A stretch of 64,000 nt of DNA, taken from NCBI GenBank assembly GCA_965217585.1, contig OZ244561.1:6848001-6912000 (forward strand). The letters are read 5' to 3'. Each line of letters begins with the position of its first letter. Within the stretch, counting starts at the first letter, position 1. This document shows, in pieces, positions 28,741 through 34,543 of this stretch. The notes below the pieces were generated by a model. That model was given only the letters and a program-made list of their open reading frames with translations, was not told the DNA's origin and searched no databases. Made by a program: the position numbers and the translations under genes. This stretch comes from Candidatus Latescibacterota bacterium. Its GTDB lineage: Bacteria; Latescibacterota; UBA2968; UBA8231.

Positions 28741-28785
28741 GGTCTTCGGGATAAGTCGGTGCTGTTGACGACTTGGAAGGAGGTT

Positions 28786-29565
28786 ATGATGAACGATCCC
28801 CATGTAGTCGCACTGCTCTACCGCGTCTGCCACAACGAGTCCGTAGACTACAGTAAAGCGAAGCCGCTTGTCTTGGACCAGCCTGACTTCCGCGTGGAAA
28901 TCAAGGACAGAAAGGCACGGTTCGAACTGAAGCAACACTACCCGACCGAAGAGGAAGCGCGAAAGTTGGTTGACCCTTTCGTGCGGAACTGGGAATTCGA
29001 CGCAAGTCTCAGACAAGCGCCCGGATTCTTCAGGCTCGAATTCAACCAAGCCGAGATCATCGACCGGAGGCCAACTAAAGGGGTCGTAGAACTTTCCGCT
29101 TCACTTAGGGCAGGATCGCCAACTCTATCCGTGAAGAATCTCACGGTTCTGCCTCAGACGTACCTACCACCATCGTCGGGAATCGACAGTGACCACCCGG
29201 ACGTTCAGACCCTTTACCAACGGTACGAGAGCTTCTGCCAAGGCAAGGAATTGCTAACGGCCTTCGCGTACTTCTGCTTGACCATAGTGGAGCACTCGGT
29301 TGGGCCGGGGAAAAAACTCCGTCGAAAGGCAGCAGATGTGTACGGGATCGAAATGCCGGTGCTTGACGAGATCGGGAAGCTCTCTTCCTGCAAAGGCGGC
29401 AGCGAGGCGAGGAAGGCTTCTGGTACCAATGATCCACTTACCCAAGACGAGCGCCGGTTTTTGAAACGCGCAGTCGTGAGACTGATTCGGCGAGTTGCCG
29501 AGTATCACGGCAGAATAGGCGGCTTGTCGAAGATCTCGATTAAGGATATCAACCGCGAACCATGA
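28786..29565 (+). CDS. Hypothetical protein (helical C-terminus, possibly HEPN/MauJ-like)
   Basis: GAAGGAGG RBS before ATG at 28786; family assignment tentative. Confidence 0.7.
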   Translation: MMNDPHVVALLYRVCHNESVDYSKAKPLVLDQPDFRVEIKDRKARFELKQHYPTEEEARKLVDPFVRNWEFDASLRQAPGFFRLEFNQAEIIDRRPTKGVVELSASLRAGSPTLSVKNLTVLPQTYLPPSSGIDSDHPDVQTLYQRYESFCQGKELLTAFAYFCLTIVEHSVGPGKKLRRKAADVYGIEMPVLDEIGKLSSCKGGSEARKASGTNDPLTQDERRFLKRAVVRLIRRVAEYHGRIGGLSKISIKDINREP

Positions 29566-29786: not shown

Positions 29787-31142
29787 CTAGGTCGGCACCC
29801 AGCCCTTCTGCCGCAGTTCTTCTTCTAGCAATCCCAAACACTCGTCGATGATGGCCAGAGACTCGTCGAGCTGTTCTTGTGTAATGATCAGCGGCGGATA
29901 AAAGCGCAAATCGTCGCCCTCAATCCAGTCGGCTCCCCCGCTAGTGCCCGAAATGGCCAAGCCCCGTTCCAAGGTGAGTTGAGGCACGCGCCGCGACGCG
30001 CCCCATTCGGGAGGAAAGGGCTTGCGACTGCGGCGATCCTGGACCAGTTCAATGCCCAGCATTAGGCCCTTACCGCGCACTTGGCCGACGCAAGCATAGC
30101 GCGTCAAGCCCTGGGCTTTTTCCTGCAAATAGGCCCCGACCTGAGCGGCGTGTTCCACGATTCCTTCTTCTTCCAGCAGTTCCAGTACGGCCAAGCCGGC
30201 GCGCATAGACACTGGGTTATTGACATAGGTAAAAACGTGCGGCAGAGCTTGGCCGCTGCGAGCGAGGTCCTGCCGCATCTGTTCGCTCAGCAATACCCCT
30301 CCCAAGGGCGCATACCCGCTGCTAGCCCCTTTGCCAAAAACAATCATATCGGGCACCACATCCCAGTGCTCAATGGCAAAGAGCTTGCCGGTGCGGCCAA
30401 AGCCGGTGATGATCTCGTCGGCGATAAAGAGGACGTCGTGCTCGTCGCAGATCTGGCGGATGAGGGGATAGTAATCGGGCGGCGGAGCCCCGGCGGCGAT
30501 CCCGGCCATGACCACCGGCTCGGCGATAAAGGCAGCGATGTTGTCGGCCCCTACCTCGCGGATGGTCTCTTCTAACTGTCGGGCGCAGGCCAAATTGCAG
30601 CGATCTTCGCAACCAGCAAAAGCGCAGCGGTAGGGATAGCACGAGGCAATGTGCGGAAAAGCCGGCAGATACGGCTCAAAGGGCGTCCGCAGCCCCGGCA
30701 TCCCGGTAGCAGCCAAGGCACCCAAGGTAGCGCCGTGATAGCCGCGCCAGCGACCAATGATCTGGTGTTTTTGCGCTTGGCCCCGCTGCAAATGGTACAA
30801 GCGGGCCAGTTTAATAGCCGTCTCCACGCCTTCGGAGCCGCCCGAGACAAAGTAGGCGTGGTTCAAGTCGCCGGGGGCCAGTTCGGCCAAGCGGTGGGCG
30901 TACTCGAGGGCTGGCTTATTGGTAAAAAACGTCGAAAAGCAATACGCCAATTCCCGTCCTTGGGCGGCCATGGCCTCGACGATGGCATGGCGACCGTGGC
31001 CCAAGGTGACGTTGCCAGCCCCGGCCGTGCCGTCGATATAGCGTCTACCAGCTTCGTCGTACAAATAAATCCCTTCGCCTTTGACGAGAACCGGGTAGGT
31101 GTATTGCGGGTCGCGATGGAGGAGCGCTGGGTCGGTAGTCAT
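29787..31142 (-). CDS. Class-III PLP aminotransferase
   Basis: SGGSE, YHG.T, FIAEPV, LFIADEIITGFGRTG, and FGKG carrying the PLP lysine. Confidence 0.93.
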   Translation of the reverse strand: MTTDPALLHRDPQYTYPVLVKGEGIYLYDEAGRRYIDGTAGAGNVTLGHGRHAIVEAMAAQGRELAYCFSTFFTNKPALEYAHRLAELAPGDLNHAYFVSGGSEGVETAIKLARLYHLQRGQAQKHQIIGRWRGYHGATLGALAATGMPGLRTPFEPYLPAFPHIASCYPYRCAFAGCEDRCNLACARQLEETIREVGADNIAAFIAEPVVMAGIAAGAPPPDYYPLIRQICDEHDVLFIADEIITGFGRTGKLFAIEHWDVVPDMIVFGKGASSGYAPLGGVLLSEQMRQDLARSGQALPHVFTYVNNPVSMRAGLAVLELLEEEGIVEHAAQVGAYLQEKAQGLTRYACVGQVRGKGLMLGIELVQDRRSRKPFPPEWGASRRVPQLTLERGLAISGTSGGADWIEGDDLRFYPPLIITQEQLDESLAIIDECLGLLEEELRQKGWVPT

Positions 31143-31171
31143 GGGTTTTATCCAAGCAGATAGTCTCGCAT

Positions 31172-31423
31172 TCAGCGGTAAACATCCCGCCGATGTCCAA
31201 TGTGTAAAACCGTCACCGTACTCTGCTGATCGTCAATTTCATAAATCACTCGGTAATCCCCAGCCCGGATGCGCCAGCCTTCACGACCCTTCAGTTTGCG
31301 GCATCCTGCTGGACGGGGTTGGTTGGCTAGCATCCGCACAGCATCGCGCACCTTCTCATAGATTCCAGCCGGCAATTGGGTCAATTCTCTCTGCGCTTGC
31401 CGCCGGATTCTAAGGTCGTACAA
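31172..31423 (-). CDS. relE: RelE/ParE-family toxin
   Basis: 83 aa; PRPAGCRKLKG...WRIRAGDYRVIYEIDD...VLHIGHRRDVYR; TTG start 2 bp after the upstream stop. Confidence 0.92.
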   Translation of the reverse strand: MYDLRIRRQAQRELTQLPAGIYEKVRDAVRMLANQPRPAGCRKLKGREGWRIRAGDYRVIYEIDDQQSTVTVLHIGHRRDVYR

Positions 31424-31425
31424 TT

Positions 31426-33306
31426 TCAGCGTTCCCTTTCGATTTCTTCCACCGCTTGCTCAAAAGGAATCGCCTCATCGTCTCTTGACTTAGCTTGGTC
31501 GTAGGCCCGAATCGATTCTAGCTCCTCTAGCTCCTCCAGTTCTTCCAGCAGATTCTCGTAGCCACCAATTTCGTCGAGCACTACGCCGATGCGCTGTCGC
31601 AGCCGTTCACGGCGGTCCTGATAGAACTTCTCAAAATCAAAGATGCTCTTAGGCACGACACCAAGTAAGTAATTATCACAATAATGCTGGCGTTCCTCTT
31701 GGGTTGAAAAGTGCCTATCCAACCACTCTGCTGGAAGTTGCATCCTTTTTTCATTGTTGATATCGCCTATAAGGAGTTGGAGATTGCCCAGTCGATTGCT
31801 ATGATCCCGAAACGTCTCGATATCTTCTTCGGCTACTCCCTCTCTACGAAGACGATTTGGCGTGAAACGACCATGTGGAAATATATGGTCAACATGGAAC
31901 TGATTACGCAGGTCAACAAAAGGGAACAACAGAGCTAACAGCGTAAAGATGCGCTGGTCGTTGAACTTCATATCAGCAAGTTCTTCGATTTCCTCTTGCT
32001 CAAAATTCAGACTTTTTCCCCGCTGGGACATGACACGCCGCATTTCTTCCTCTGGAAAATGATCAATATCCTCGCGTTGCATAGTATCTCGTAGTGCTGT
32101 GAGCAAGGTATCAAGACCACTACCCCAGACGCCTGACTTCAGACGGGAGAGCATGAGCCAACCGCGAATGGCGGCGCGATCATCAGCAAACTTTCCGTGT
32201 GTGACAAAATTCTCTGGGCAATTCCTCCGGTAGAGATAGTACGCAATCGGCAACAATGAACTTGCTGCTCCGATCGTATCGCGATTGTATCCGAAACTGG
32301 CCGCAAGTTCGACAGTTCTAATCAAGGCACTGCGGATTTTCTGCCAGTTTTTTTCGAGCTTCTTCATGTTATCGTGGGTGAAGTTTTCGACCTTGAAACC
32401 GACGCTTGCTATATCAGTCAGCATGAGTCCGGCCTTCAGAACGAAGTCCTTCGAGAAGTCGAAGCGATTGCTATTGCCAATCCAATTCATTTCGTCCACT
32501 AGTTCGTGTACTGCCTTGCGCGCGTCGCCCTTCCATTGTGCTGTGGCAATGCTGAGCAAGAGATCGGAGTAGGAAAGGACGGTACCTCCGCTGTTGCGAC
32601 GAATGAAAATGTGAAGGACGCGATCGAGATCTTGTTCCGTCTCCTCAAAGAAAAAGATCGTCGGATCGACGGTGACGACCCTATGCAATCGGTCCAAGAT
32701 GCGGTAGGCAATTCTGTGCTGGTTGTTATCGAGATTCTTATCGAGTATCCAGTCAGTCATATCCAAGCCGCCTTCAAAATCCATGATGTCGGAAACCCGA
32801 AACCAGAGTTCGTCGCCGGTCCGCCCAATCCGATCCTCGTTGATGAATGCAAAGACGTACTGACTGCCTTCCTCATCCAATTCTCCATGTGCCAGAAGGT
32901 CCAGCGCAAGGACACGGCGTGGAAACGCATCTGGATTGTTCCACCACCTATAGGGCAGCTTTGTCGCCATTGATCCACGCAGACCGATATTGAATGCGGT
33001 CAAGCGTTGCTGACCATCGAGAACCGCCGTCAATGGTTGGTCGCGCAGGATGCCAAGATCGGGGCAATGCGGGTCGCGCTCATCGTAATCGCGAACGAAT
33101 CCATAGTAGCGATAGCGTGCGGCATTCTCGGCTTCGACGCTCCAGAATAGGAATTCTCCGAAGGGATAGCCCTGCATCACACTATCGAACAGCTTACAAA
33201 CTTGATCCGGCAGCCAAACGAACTCCCTTTGGATCGCAGGCAAGACGTATTCGTTCCTCGCGATACGGTCCACTACTTGCTTGATCGTTCCTCCTTGCTG
33301 GTACAT
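31426..33306 (-). CDS. GmrSD-family (DUF262 + DUF1524 HNH) modification-dependent nuclease with C-terminal antitoxin-like fusion
   Basis: PAIQREFVW, LDGQQR and FIRRN (DUF262); DHIFP...GNL...N (HNH); ATG at 33306 after GGAGG/GAAGG; acidic tail. Confidence 0.88.
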   Translation of the reverse strand: MYQQGGTIKQVVDRIARNEYVLPAIQREFVWLPDQVCKLFDSVMQGYPFGEFLFWSVEAENAARYRYYGFVRDYDERDPHCPDLGILRDQPLTAVLDGQQRLTAFNIGLRGSMATKLPYRWWNNPDAFPRRVLALDLLAHGELDEEGSQYVFAFINEDRIGRTGDELWFRVSDIMDFEGGLDMTDWILDKNLDNNQHRIAYRILDRLHRVVTVDPTIFFFEETEQDLDRVLHIFIRRNSGGTVLSYSDLLLSIATAQWKGDARKAVHELVDEMNWIGNSNRFDFSKDFVLKAGLMLTDIASVGFKVENFTHDNMKKLEKNWQKIRSALIRTVELAASFGYNRDTIGAASSLLPIAYYLYRRNCPENFVTHGKFADDRAAIRGWLMLSRLKSGVWGSGLDTLLTALRDTMQREDIDHFPEEEMRRVMSQRGKSLNFEQEEIEELADMKFNDQRIFTLLALLFPFVDLRNQFHVDHIFPHGRFTPNRLRREGVAEEDIETFRDHSNRLGNLQLLIGDINNEKRMQLPAEWLDRHFSTQEERQHYCDNYLLGVVPKSIFDFEKFYQDRRERLRQRIGVVLDEIGGYENLLEELEELEELESIRAYDQAKSRDDEAIPFEQAVEEIERER

Positions 33307-33427
33307 GCCTTCTTTACCTCCTTCTCTCAGATCTAACACATGCAGATATTTGTTTCGGTCAAAACCGTTGACCAAGAGGGCACGACAAAATATAACTCCG
33401 TCGCAATGCGTCCTCCAAAGGTCATCT

Positions 33428-34543
33428 TCATTCGTTCAATTCCCGATTTTCAGGAATGAGGGGCAACACCTCGCGCAGCACCTTCGCCAAGGCTTGCCGC
33501 TCGGCGGCTGGTCCCACGGTTAGGCGGATGCAGCGGTCGAGCGGGGCCACGCCCGGCATCCGCACGAAGATTCCGTGCTGCAAAAGTACCTGCATCAGGT
33601 ACCGCGCACGCTCGCCACTGCCCACGTCGAGCGCCACGAAATTAGTCGCCGAGGGCACCGTTTTCAGTCCCAATTCCGCTGCCAGAACCCCGTACTCCCG
33701 CCGACCTTCCTCTACTTGCCGTACCACCGAGCGCACGAACTCGTCGTCGCCCAGCGAAGCAAGCGCCCCAGCCTGGGCAATGCGGTTGACGCCAAAGTGA
33801 TTGCGAACCTTGTCGAGCGCGGCCACTAAGTCGCGGTGCGCCAGCGCATAGCCGACTCTAGCTCCGGCCATGCCGTGCGCCTTGGAAAACGTCCGCAGCC
33901 GCACCACCTGGGCCCGCTCTGTGTCCAGCGGCAGATGCGCATCCGCGGGCGCGAAGTCGATGTACGCTTCGTCGAGCAGCAACACACAGCCCGGCGGCAA
34001 CTCCGCGATAAAATCCCGCAACTCGTCGGCCCGCTGATAGGTGCCCATGGGGTTGTCGGGATTGGCCACGTAAAGCAGCTTGGGATGCACTTGCCACGCC
34101 TTGGCCAACAGGGCCGGCAAATCCTCCCGATCCGCGCGATAGGGCACCTTGTGCAATATCGCCCCGTGCCCCTCGACATGATAGTTGAACGTGGGATAGG
34201 CCCCCAGCGACGTCACTACCGAGTCGCCCGGCTCGGCAAAGAGGCGCACCAAAAGCCCCAAGAGTTCATCAATGCCCGCGCCCAAGACGACCTCTTCCCG
34301 CGCCACCCCGTGCCGCACCGCCAGCGCCGAGCGTAGCTCGTATCCCTCCGGGTCGTTGTACCAATGCACTTGATCCACCGCCTCCACCATGGCCTGCCGC
34401 GCCCGCGGCGAGATCCCGAAATTGCTCTCATTGGCCCCAACCCGCAGAGCGAGCGGCTGCCCCTGCTGCCTTTCTAATGCCTCGGGCGGCACAAAGGGAA
34501 CGGTCGGCGGCAAGGCGCGGACGATGTGCGTGAACGGCAACAC
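33428..34543 (-). CDS. Class I/II PLP aminotransferase, HisC-like
   Basis: ANES, NPDNPMG, LDEAY, RTFSKAHGMAGARVGY. Confidence 0.9.
   Translation of the reverse strand: MLPFTHIVRALPPTVPFVPPEALERQQGQPLALRVGANESNFGISPRARQAMVEAVDQVHWYNDPEGYELRSALAVRHGVAREEVVLGAGIDELLGLLVRLFAEPGDSVVTSLGAYPTFNYHVEGHGAILHKVPYRADREDLPALLAKAWQVHPKLLYVANPDNPMGTYQRADELRDFIAELPPGCVLLLDEAYIDFAPADAHLPLDTERAQVVRLRTFSKAHGMAGARVGYALAHRDLVAALDKVRNHFGVNRIAQAGALASLGDDEFVRSVVRQVEEGRREYGVLAAELGLKTVPSATNFVALDVGSGERARYLMQVLLQHGIFVRMPGVAPLDRCIRLTVGPAAERQALAKVLREVLPLIPENRELNE

Follow-up and report, generated by a model that had tools for sequence, protein, structure and literature searches.

An in-frame fusion of a BrxU-type GmrSD restriction enzyme to a RelB-like antitoxin tail upstream of relE in a Latescibacterota genome

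Introduction

A functional coupling of toxin-antitoxin (TA) systems with immunity has long been argued for, either as a way to stabilise costly defence genes or as an additional suicide layer. To our knowledge, natural cases with an explicit physical link between the two are rare. The classical precedent for a restriction enzyme that guards a toxin is the PrrC anticodon nuclease, a separate protein that lacks an antitoxin domain and is kept latent by binding to the type Ic enzyme EcoprrI, with the Stp peptide of phage T4 as its trigger. For the locus described here, we also propose an RNA-cutting toxin held on a restriction enzyme, the holder being of type IV. The locus is found in a 64,000-nt stretch of a Candidatus Latescibacterota genome (assembly GCA_965217585.1, contig OZ244561.1, positions 6,848,001 to 6,912,000; referred to as the window, from the first base of which all coordinates are counted). 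Its central element is a gene for a GmrSD-type enzyme which continues in frame into a putative RelB-like antitoxin and directly precedes an intact gene for RelE, an mRNA-cleaving toxin.

BrxU from Escherichia fergusonii (pEFER; PDB 7P9K/7P9M) is the first solved type IV restriction enzyme of the GmrSD family; for nucleotide binding, hydrolysis, and DNA cleavage it requires its motifs RLFDS, DGQQR, and DHIYP (PMC8565348). DUF262 modules, which also make up the N-terminal part of GmrSD enzymes, have repeatedly been found coupled with an RNase: a DUF262-Schlafen protein (EcoSlfn7) protects E. coli from phages (PMC13056530), ParB(DUF262)+HNH+HEPN fusions have been catalogued (PMC3710099), and an operon consisting of DUF262, a PtuA-like ATPase, and PIN-YoeB (ptuXYZ) has been proposed (PMC11980606). 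The RNase is either fused directly or part of a three-gene operon with an ATPase, and none of these systems is reported to use an antitoxin peptide as the link. In the present locus, in contrast, the RNase is a separate RelE which, according to the structure model, would be recruited non-covalently.

A defence gene may also become addictive through a TA system, as for CreTA, where CRISPR-regulated toxin-antitoxin RNA pairs do so for the Cascade genes (PMC9458426). CreTA and the arrangement proposed here would be alike in that the toxin is silenced only while the defence component is present, so that loss of the defence gene is punished. They differ in that CreTA consists of an RNA toxin and antitoxin under transcriptional repression by Cascade, whereas a protein-protein tether within one polypeptide is proposed here. 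With RelBE-type pairs that have a PF18506 antitoxin (toxin relative aRelE, 1WMI), the locus shares the RelE/ParE fold, the 2-nt spacing, and the TTG start, and in the model the toxin is likewise contacted by the C-terminal peptide of the antitoxin. The antitoxin is not separate, however, and its supply hangs on translation of a 570-residue enzyme. A full-text search that did not extend to the supplementary tables of PMC11980606 and PMC13056530, which could list such architectures, returned no published description of an antitoxin joined to a GmrSD or BrxU enzyme.

Results

Anatomy of the locus

The initial annotation of the window had proposed that a GmrSD-type nuclease is fused in frame to an antitoxin, that an intact relE starts 2 bp after this gene, and that a separate antitoxin gene is missing. 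Each of these claims could be confirmed. A single open reading frame (ORF) covers enzyme and tail; from its first TTG it spans 31426..33375 on the minus strand in the ORF listing, and the printed translation ends with ...RIGVVLDEIGGYENLLEELEELEELESIRAYDQAKSRDDEAIPFEQAVEEIERER*. We assign the start to the ATG at 33306 because all four other full-length relatives begin at this position (with MYQQGG or MHERG) and because the Shine-Dalgarno-like sequence AAGGAGGT is located 9 nt upstream. The product then has 626 aa, and its tail ends ...FYQDRRERLRQRIGVVLDEIGGYENLLEELEELEELESIRAYDQAKSRDDEAIPFEQAVEEIERER*, as had been transcribed in the initial annotation. Residues 1-570 represent a BrxU-type GmrSD enzyme, and residues 571-626 correspond to the C-terminal 56 aa of a RelB-like antitoxin of 66 aa. 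The TGA stop of the fused gene (31426-31428) and the TTG of relE (31421-31423) are separated by 2 nt. When the 7.32-Mb genome was searched with the tail for a second antitoxin copy, only the fused copy (E=2.9e-31) and a chance-level match (E=0.63) were obtained, so that a separate antitoxin gene is missing from the whole genome as well as from the locus. The features are collected in Table 1.

Table 1. Features of the fused locus and its flanks in the window
Feature	Position	Strand	Remarks
Class-III (aspartate aminotransferase family) aminotransferase, right flank	29787..31142	-	NCBIfam PRK06917 E=5.1e-131, below cut-off
relE	31172..31423	-	83 codons + stop; TTG start 2 nt past the fused-gene stop
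Fused gmrSD-antitoxin gene	31426..33306	-	626 codons + TGA stop; BrxU-type GmrSD body, then antitoxin tail
RelE-binding segment (predicted)	31429..31515	-	residues 598-626, SIRAYDQAKSRDDEAIPFEQAVEEIERER; inside the modelled interface
Junction and linker	31516..31596	-	residues 571-597, QRIGVVLDEIGGYENLLEELEELEELE; derived from strand 2 and the beginning of the helix of the antitoxin; diverged
GmrSD insertion	31597..33461	-	about 1.87 kb absent from the slot in same-genus genomes; hisC-like 3' end to codon 570
DUF1524-type HNH nuclease region	31744..32007	-	residues 434-521; PF07510 E=0.0017; DHIFP and NLQLL..N..K motifs
DUF262 / GmrSD_N domain	32551..33285	-	residues 8-252; Pfam PF03235 E=1.3e-25; KLFDS and DGQQR motifs
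Shine-Dalgarno-like AAGGAGGT	33316..33323	-	9 nt upstream of ATG 33306, read from the sequence
hisC-like PLP aminotransferase, left flank	33428..34543	-	PRK08153 E=2.1e-150, hisC E=2.3e-77 (NCBIfam, both below cut-off)

The antitoxin tail

The resemblance of the tail to small antitoxins, which had been noted in the initial annotation, holds up and is far beyond chance. Among 1.84 billion representative proteins, the tail matches 270 at E<=1e-3, and 139 of the 150 matches listed (of these 270) are proteins of 44-113 aa which carry the match at their C-terminus. A free antitoxin of 66 aa (P0010) is 79% identical to the tail over 56 positions. Of 41 free relatives, 37 match the Pfam family PF18506 ("RelB-like"; best E=1.1e-8) and 33 match PhdYeFM, more weakly. 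In the free antitoxin, the PF18506 match occupies residues 3-35, which are mostly lost from the tail, and the tail alone scores nothing for this reason: the HMM search of the last 60 residues, which had been suggested as a check, gave no Pfam or NCBIfam family and only a chance match to MinC (E=0.14). Thus, the direct match did not materialise, while the family label is obtained through the free relatives. The tail does not belong to PF18506 by its own model score, and we consider it RelB-like by descent, as judged from its relatives, and not by Pfam score. A comparison of the antitoxin profile with solved structures gave nothing significant (best E=0.52).

Type II TA systems typically have a small separate antitoxin with an N-terminal DNA-binding or dimerisation part, which is not what is found here. 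They also have the antitoxin coding sequence directly upstream of the toxin in one operon, and this is the case, the layout being that of the free pair in the same-genus genome G001. At the protein level, residues 598-626 do not differ from the corresponding part of the free antitoxin in either G001 or G020.

The C-terminal peptide predicted to bind RelE (...EELEELxSIRAYDxAKxxxDEAIPFEQA...) is also found on unrelated N-terminal domains, namely DUF2188 (P0043, P0040, P0300, P0311), GUN4 (P0294, P0295, P0310), and membrane proteins of about 300 aa (P0105, P0137, P0297, P0305). Because these N-terminal domains are quite different, the peptide may be considered a portable module, although some of the fusions may be gene-calling run-ons.

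The relE gene

The relE product is full-length and matches ParE_toxin (PF05016, RelE/ParE superfamily) with E=4e-15; TIGR02385 (RelE_StbE) scores 25.6 bits, just under its cut-off of 27.9. A profile from 41 relatives matches the solved RelE-type toxins 2khe, 3g5o_B, 1wmi_A, and E. coli RelE 4fxe_D (E between 9.2e-13 and 6.9e-6), and all 19 columns that are invariant in the alignment of these relatives are retained in the window. The gene is intact, as had been claimed. It is 96% identical to relE of G001, with the same TTG start and spacing as in canonical pairs.

Among the best 120 of 1543 matches in a collection of 5.8 billion proteins, the window RelE itself is absent (no entry at 100% identity). 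Gene callers thus apparently skip this TTG-start gene and, since the tail has no Pfam match either, routine annotation pipelines would see a plain, lone GmrSD gene. Neither a promoter scan (3 promoter-like sites vs. 2.0+/-1.5 in shuffled sequences, with no minus-strand site near the junction) nor a terminator scan (2 terminator-like sites vs. 2.6+/-1.6) performed better than shuffles.

The enzyme body

Over its residues 1-579, the protein aligns end to end with BrxU (PDB 7p9k_A, residues 1-580; E=1.7e-180), and the PADLOC model HEC-05 matches the body with E=9.9e-210. By sequence comparison, the body is unambiguously assigned to the BrxU/HEC-05 branch of GmrSD. The GmrSD_C model (PF07510) scores 18.7 bits, which is under its 23-bit cut-off; nonetheless, the HNH domain aligns in full to BrxU. 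KLFDS, DGQQR, and DHIFP correspond to RLFDS, DGQQR, and DHIYP of BrxU. In an alignment of 45 sequences, from which two loci with an internal stop in the matched frame (L006 and L039) were excluded, the invariant residues include F40, D41, and S42 of KLFDS (residues 38-42), the complete DGQQR motif (D97, G98, Q99, Q100, R101), and D473, H474, P477, N508, N517, and K520 of the HNH domain.

It is the C-terminus where the enzyme deviates. BrxU stops 7 residues past the aligned part, whereas the fused protein runs on into 56 antitoxin residues. The native ends of 80 relatives on genome contigs (<=63% identity) read ...RRERLQ.RI.ELVNSV* near residue 580; the fused enzyme has no such end and has lost about 10 residues. 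The tail sequence RIGVVLDEI was considered as a plain native GmrSD C-terminus (RI.ELVNSV), but this was rejected as CAGCGC and the DNA that follows it align with the free antitoxin gene.

The BrxU-type relatives at 59-63% identity (L001-L080) are from metagenome-assembled genomes (MAGs) with labels including Caldilineaceae, Pseudomonadales, Alphaproteobacteria, Dehalococcoidia, and Paracoccaceae. This spread of labels suggests wide horizontal transfer.

Origin of the fusion

The corresponding loci were fetched from 12 relatives with species-representative genomes, 11 from the same genus and one from the same class. All 12 have a free antitoxin, encoded by a small ORF which matches residues ~570-626 at 65-87% identity. 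Three loci have a full-length relE that is 90-96% identical to that of the window: the copies of G001 and G020 (95-96%) are in the same slot, and that of G019 (90%) is at another locus. In two of the 12, relE is diverged or split. In G001, the free antitoxin directly precedes the 96%-identical relE. The flanking genes are syntenic in most of these loci, the hisC-like gene in 7/12 (six at 91-93% identity, one partial at 87%) and the adjacent class-III aminotransferase gene in 9/12 (86-96%). What usually lies between them is the free antitoxin, with or without relE.

BLASTn homology between the window and the same-genus loci extends over 31000-31596, breaks, and is found again at 33462-33500. 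Because homology stops at 31596 and resumes at 33462, the intervening ~1.87 kb are considered an insertion which carries the GmrSD gene. At the DNA level, homology to the free antitoxin sets in precisely at CAGCGC, which represents codons Q571 and R572, and the two genes are joined in frame at Gln571. For the GAGGAAGGGAG...ATG of the free antitoxin gene and its first 14 codons (MLPVKEQYIIDENG), the window has no counterpart. These comparisons show that an antitoxin-relE operon was already present in a variable slot when a GmrSD gene was inserted into it, which created the fusion. A chance insertion had been listed as the alternative to a functional fusion; this is correct in that the fusion began as an accident, but the accident then persisted.

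Public runs from two other studies (X5 and X6) point to variation in natural populations. In X5, an "empty site" joint is seen (31136->33462), its two sides being separated by 32-33 other nucleotides, and both runs include, beside fused contigs, contigs with loose ends at 31538/31539 which read free-antitoxin sequence. The slot is thus considered polymorphic in nature.

At least five states of the slot (31143-33461) are seen when the window, the loci L095, L096, L097, L099-L103, and L106, and the X5 joint are compiled: empty; orphan antitoxin; antitoxin with relE; a large helicase-like defence gene with antitoxin and relE; and the GmrSD-antitoxin fusion with relE. The fourth state is represented by G001 (L095:1-2715), where the free antitoxin-relE pair is immediately preceded by a gene that encodes at least 904 aa; this gene matches PADLOC MkoC (Mokosh type II) with E=7e-195 and Pfam AAA_12, and its N-terminal half is highly repetitive. 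A gene of at least 927 aa has the same position in G020 (L106:3516-6299) and is similar as judged by its printed C-terminus alone. The slot gives the impression of a small defence hotspot with a TA pair at its border. In five same-genus genomes (L096, L099, L101, L102, and L103) relE is absent and the antitoxin orphaned, and in a sixth (L097) relE matches occur in two pieces and frames. From this sampling, the antitoxin-relE pair is decaying in much of the genus.

Recurrence of the fusion

The initial annotation had named a fusion unique to this assembly and unsupported by reads as a refutation, and had advised a search for other such loci. The fusion recurs, and it is not an assembly artefact. 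Four other full-length fused proteins (621-623 aa) from other assemblies have the same junction and are 82-86% identical overall; these alleles (P0005-P0008) were compared as proteins. Contigs from the two other studies bridge the junction, one of 810 nt from X5 (31316-32125, 0 differences) and one of 1988 nt from X6 (31504-33491, 19 differences). Among the matches to the tail, 42 proteins are longer than the free form. Seven of these belong to the fused lineage (five full-length, and P0279 and P0280, which are N-terminally cut), and the other 35 are RelB-like modules on other N-termini. With P0009, a further fragment carrying the junction, the lineage comprises eight sequence variants (the window, four full-length, and three partial). 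In none of them is the tail cut off from the enzyme by a stop codon.

Outside this lineage, the fusion was not encountered. A scan of metagenome contigs with a junction-spanning segment of 124 aa gave 590 pattern stretches with 0 confirmed, and in the 19 loci obtained by scanning with the full alignment, no match extends past residue 580; the closest (L119 and L121, 75-78%) are cut after residues 154 and 118, respectively. The 80 relatives on genome contigs lack the tail (tblastn), and relE-like matches are near only two of them (33-34% identity, 2.4 and 3.1 kb downstream). Public RNA libraries hold contigs that match the fused gene without bridging the junction, which is no proof of transcription, and regions lacking coverage carry no information: 151-nt contigs in X15 at 32019-32169 (0 differences) and 32260-32410 (2 differences), and contigs in X16 at 31778-31935 and 31345-31517.

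Conservation along the fused protein

Conservation is uneven along the five full-length fused proteins: mean pairwise identity is 85% in the body, drops to 70% in the linker (571-597), and is highest, at 90%, in the last 29 residues. A similar pattern is seen when the DNA is compared to the unfused G001 locus. While the flanking aminotransferase gene is 94%, relE 96%, and the last 87 nt of the tail 98% identical, the first 81 nt past the junction show 82% identity over 68 aligned nt, with insertions of 3 nt and 9 nt. The divergent linker may be either a decayed remnant of the antitoxin fold or the result of recombination from a more distant fused allele. Codon differences to G001 are mostly synonymous (eight synonymous and two non-synonymous for relE, two and zero for the binding segment); as counts are small and the sequences related, this is an indication and not a test.

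Structural models

Modelling of the tail-RelE complex had been proposed as a check, and the model does place the tail on RelE. With our own alignments as input (41 rows for RelE, 42 for the tail), the complex scores 0.86, while the best of three controls reaches 0.02; 58 of 80 solved complexes reach this mark, as do 2 of 110 mismatched pairs. At least 93% of contacts are shared between the three runs, and the partner pLDDT is at least 78. All confident contacts are in tail residues 20-55, so the modelled interface needs nothing that was lost in the fusion. The model thus supports binding of RelE by the tail. In the model of the full-length protein (mean pLDDT 85.8), the body is confident, while residues 581-626 have values of ~47-55, with helices that are unpacked from the body, and the linker drops below 50 at residues 583-591. 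This fits a tail that acts as a free tether and would fold on its partner.

Discussion

A proposed addictive restriction gene

We consider it reasonably likely, without being certain, that the tail is a working antitoxin of RelE and that truncation of gmrSD has thereby become costly. The course of events started when a GmrSD gene was inserted immediately before the antitoxin, whereby the reading frames were joined at Gln571. Joining removed the last ~10 residues of the enzyme together with the Shine-Dalgarno site, the start codon, and the first 14 residues of the antitoxin. These 14 residues form the first beta-strand of the free form, which probably serves in dimerisation or operator binding; with the N-terminal strand, start codon, and ribosome site gone, the usual autoregulation is probably lost. 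The flexible C-terminal 56 residues would still wrap round RelE and neutralise it, and RelE would be translated by coupling from its old TTG start, 2 nt past the stop. Since the antidote occupies the final 9% of a frame of 626 codons, it would be made only if the whole gmrSD frame is translated. A nonsense mutation, frameshift, or insertion in gmrSD, or the loss of its expression, would then leave RelE free and stop growth. Therefore, truncating mutations would release the toxin, and the restriction gene would be addictive.

Should this be correct, a single polypeptide carries the link between TA system and immunity, and the only antitoxin candidate found for an intact RelE is a restriction enzyme's tail. 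The unfused ancestral state survives in sister genomes and allows direct comparison. It can thus be tested whether the C-terminal peptide of an antitoxin works on a large unrelated enzyme, and whether the defence gene is addictive or phage-responsive. The locus also illustrates how a TA-bordered defence hotspot can yield a new architecture by a single in-frame insertion. Its clade is small, comes from uncultured bacteria, and is of accidental origin; still, it represents a clean natural construct for testing TA-immunity coupling.

Several points weigh against an addictive gmrSD. The sequence data show the anatomy, the origin by insertion, the recurrence of the fusion, and the conservation of relE and the binding segment, whereas binding and neutralisation by the tail, activity of RelE, and toxicity of a truncation are steps that we infer. 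The tail has no Pfam or NCBIfam match, and the antitoxin profile found no solved structure. The score of the complex may in part reflect likeness, because RelBE complexes have been solved. Only one of 132 species representatives of the class, the window genome, matches across the junction, while the others match either the enzyme or the antitoxin part. A relE beside the fusion is seen only for the window allele (the window and the identical X5 contig); for P0006, we infer the adjacency from a RelE (P0165, 78% identical) with which it shares the longest-contig figure of 27790. As the fusion arose where a TA pair already stood, it could be a tolerated accident, and as five genomes of the genus have lost relE and orphaned the antitoxin, the TA system is dispensable in the genus. 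There is also a small chance that a free small antitoxin is supplied by an internal start or by proteolytic release.

Alternative explanations

That the fusion is an inert by-product is the best surviving alternative, but we regard it as unlikely. The tail would then be a neutral insertion scar carried without function, with RelE either inactive or harmless in its amount. This would agree with the TTG start of relE, the weak purines upstream (AAAGGGAA), and the failure to find a promoter of its own (3 sites vs. 2.0+/-1.5 in shuffles), with its being skipped by gene callers (not among the best 120 of 1543 matches in the protein collection), and with the five same-genus genomes which kept the antitoxin after loss of relE. 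An inert relE would, however, hardly be expected to be full-length with 19/19 family-invariant columns kept, with start and spacing as in canonical pairs, and with mostly synonymous changes relative to G001 (8 vs. 2). Moreover, conservation in the fused proteins peaks in the binding segment, next to a linker that decays, and no fused variant has a stop which splits off the tail.

The initial annotation had proposed a guard function beside an addictive gene; the guard function starts from the same anatomy. The BrxU-type enzyme would be sensor and scaffold, and RelE a latent, RNA-targeting second effector which is freed by a phage and causes abortive infection. Conceivable triggers are binding of an anti-restriction protein, degradation or out-titration of the enzyme, a shut-off of host expression combined with tail turnover, or the ATP-driven dimer-monomer cycle on modified DNA. 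Such a system would parallel the DUF262-Schlafen and GmrSD-HEPN fusions in a non-covalent form, and PrrC/EcoprrI with a type IV enzyme as the holder. It becomes somewhat more plausible because DUF262/GmrSD modules are recurrently paired with an RNase and because the slot is a defence hotspot, with the MkoC gene of G001 and the similar gene of G020 directly before the free TA pair. Against this, insertion beside an existing TA pair needs no selection for guarding, only a small clade of eight sequence variants was found, phages of this host are not known to encode an inhibitor of BrxU-type enzymes, and unfused BrxU homologues are reported to work alone (PMC8565348). Overall, a guard role seems distinctly doubtful to us, and addiction to the gmrSD frame follows more directly from the anatomy.

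A free mini-antitoxin that makes the TA pair independent of the enzyme, produced from the sole in-frame canonical start inside the tail (GTG at V576, 31579-31581, 51 codons before the stop) or by clipping of the linker with its low pLDDT, would fit the portability of ~40-aa C-terminal peptides on quite different N-terminal domains but is improbable, as no Shine-Dalgarno-like run precedes the GTG (CGACAGCGCATCGGCGTA), the ancestral Shine-Dalgarno sequence and ATG have been deleted, the promoter scan found nothing beyond shuffles and no minus-strand site near the junction, and the mRNA of such a peptide would still be the gmrSD transcript.

A second insertion nearby

An ORF of 268 aa at 28759-29565 on the plus strand of the window is located between a GH32-like gene and the class-III aminotransferase gene. 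It has no match in Pfam or PADLOC, and none by tblastn in the loci searched from the relatives; in G001, G022, and G010, the genes which flank this position are about 40 nt apart. Judged from this comparison, the ORF is a second, uncharacterised insertion near that of GmrSD.

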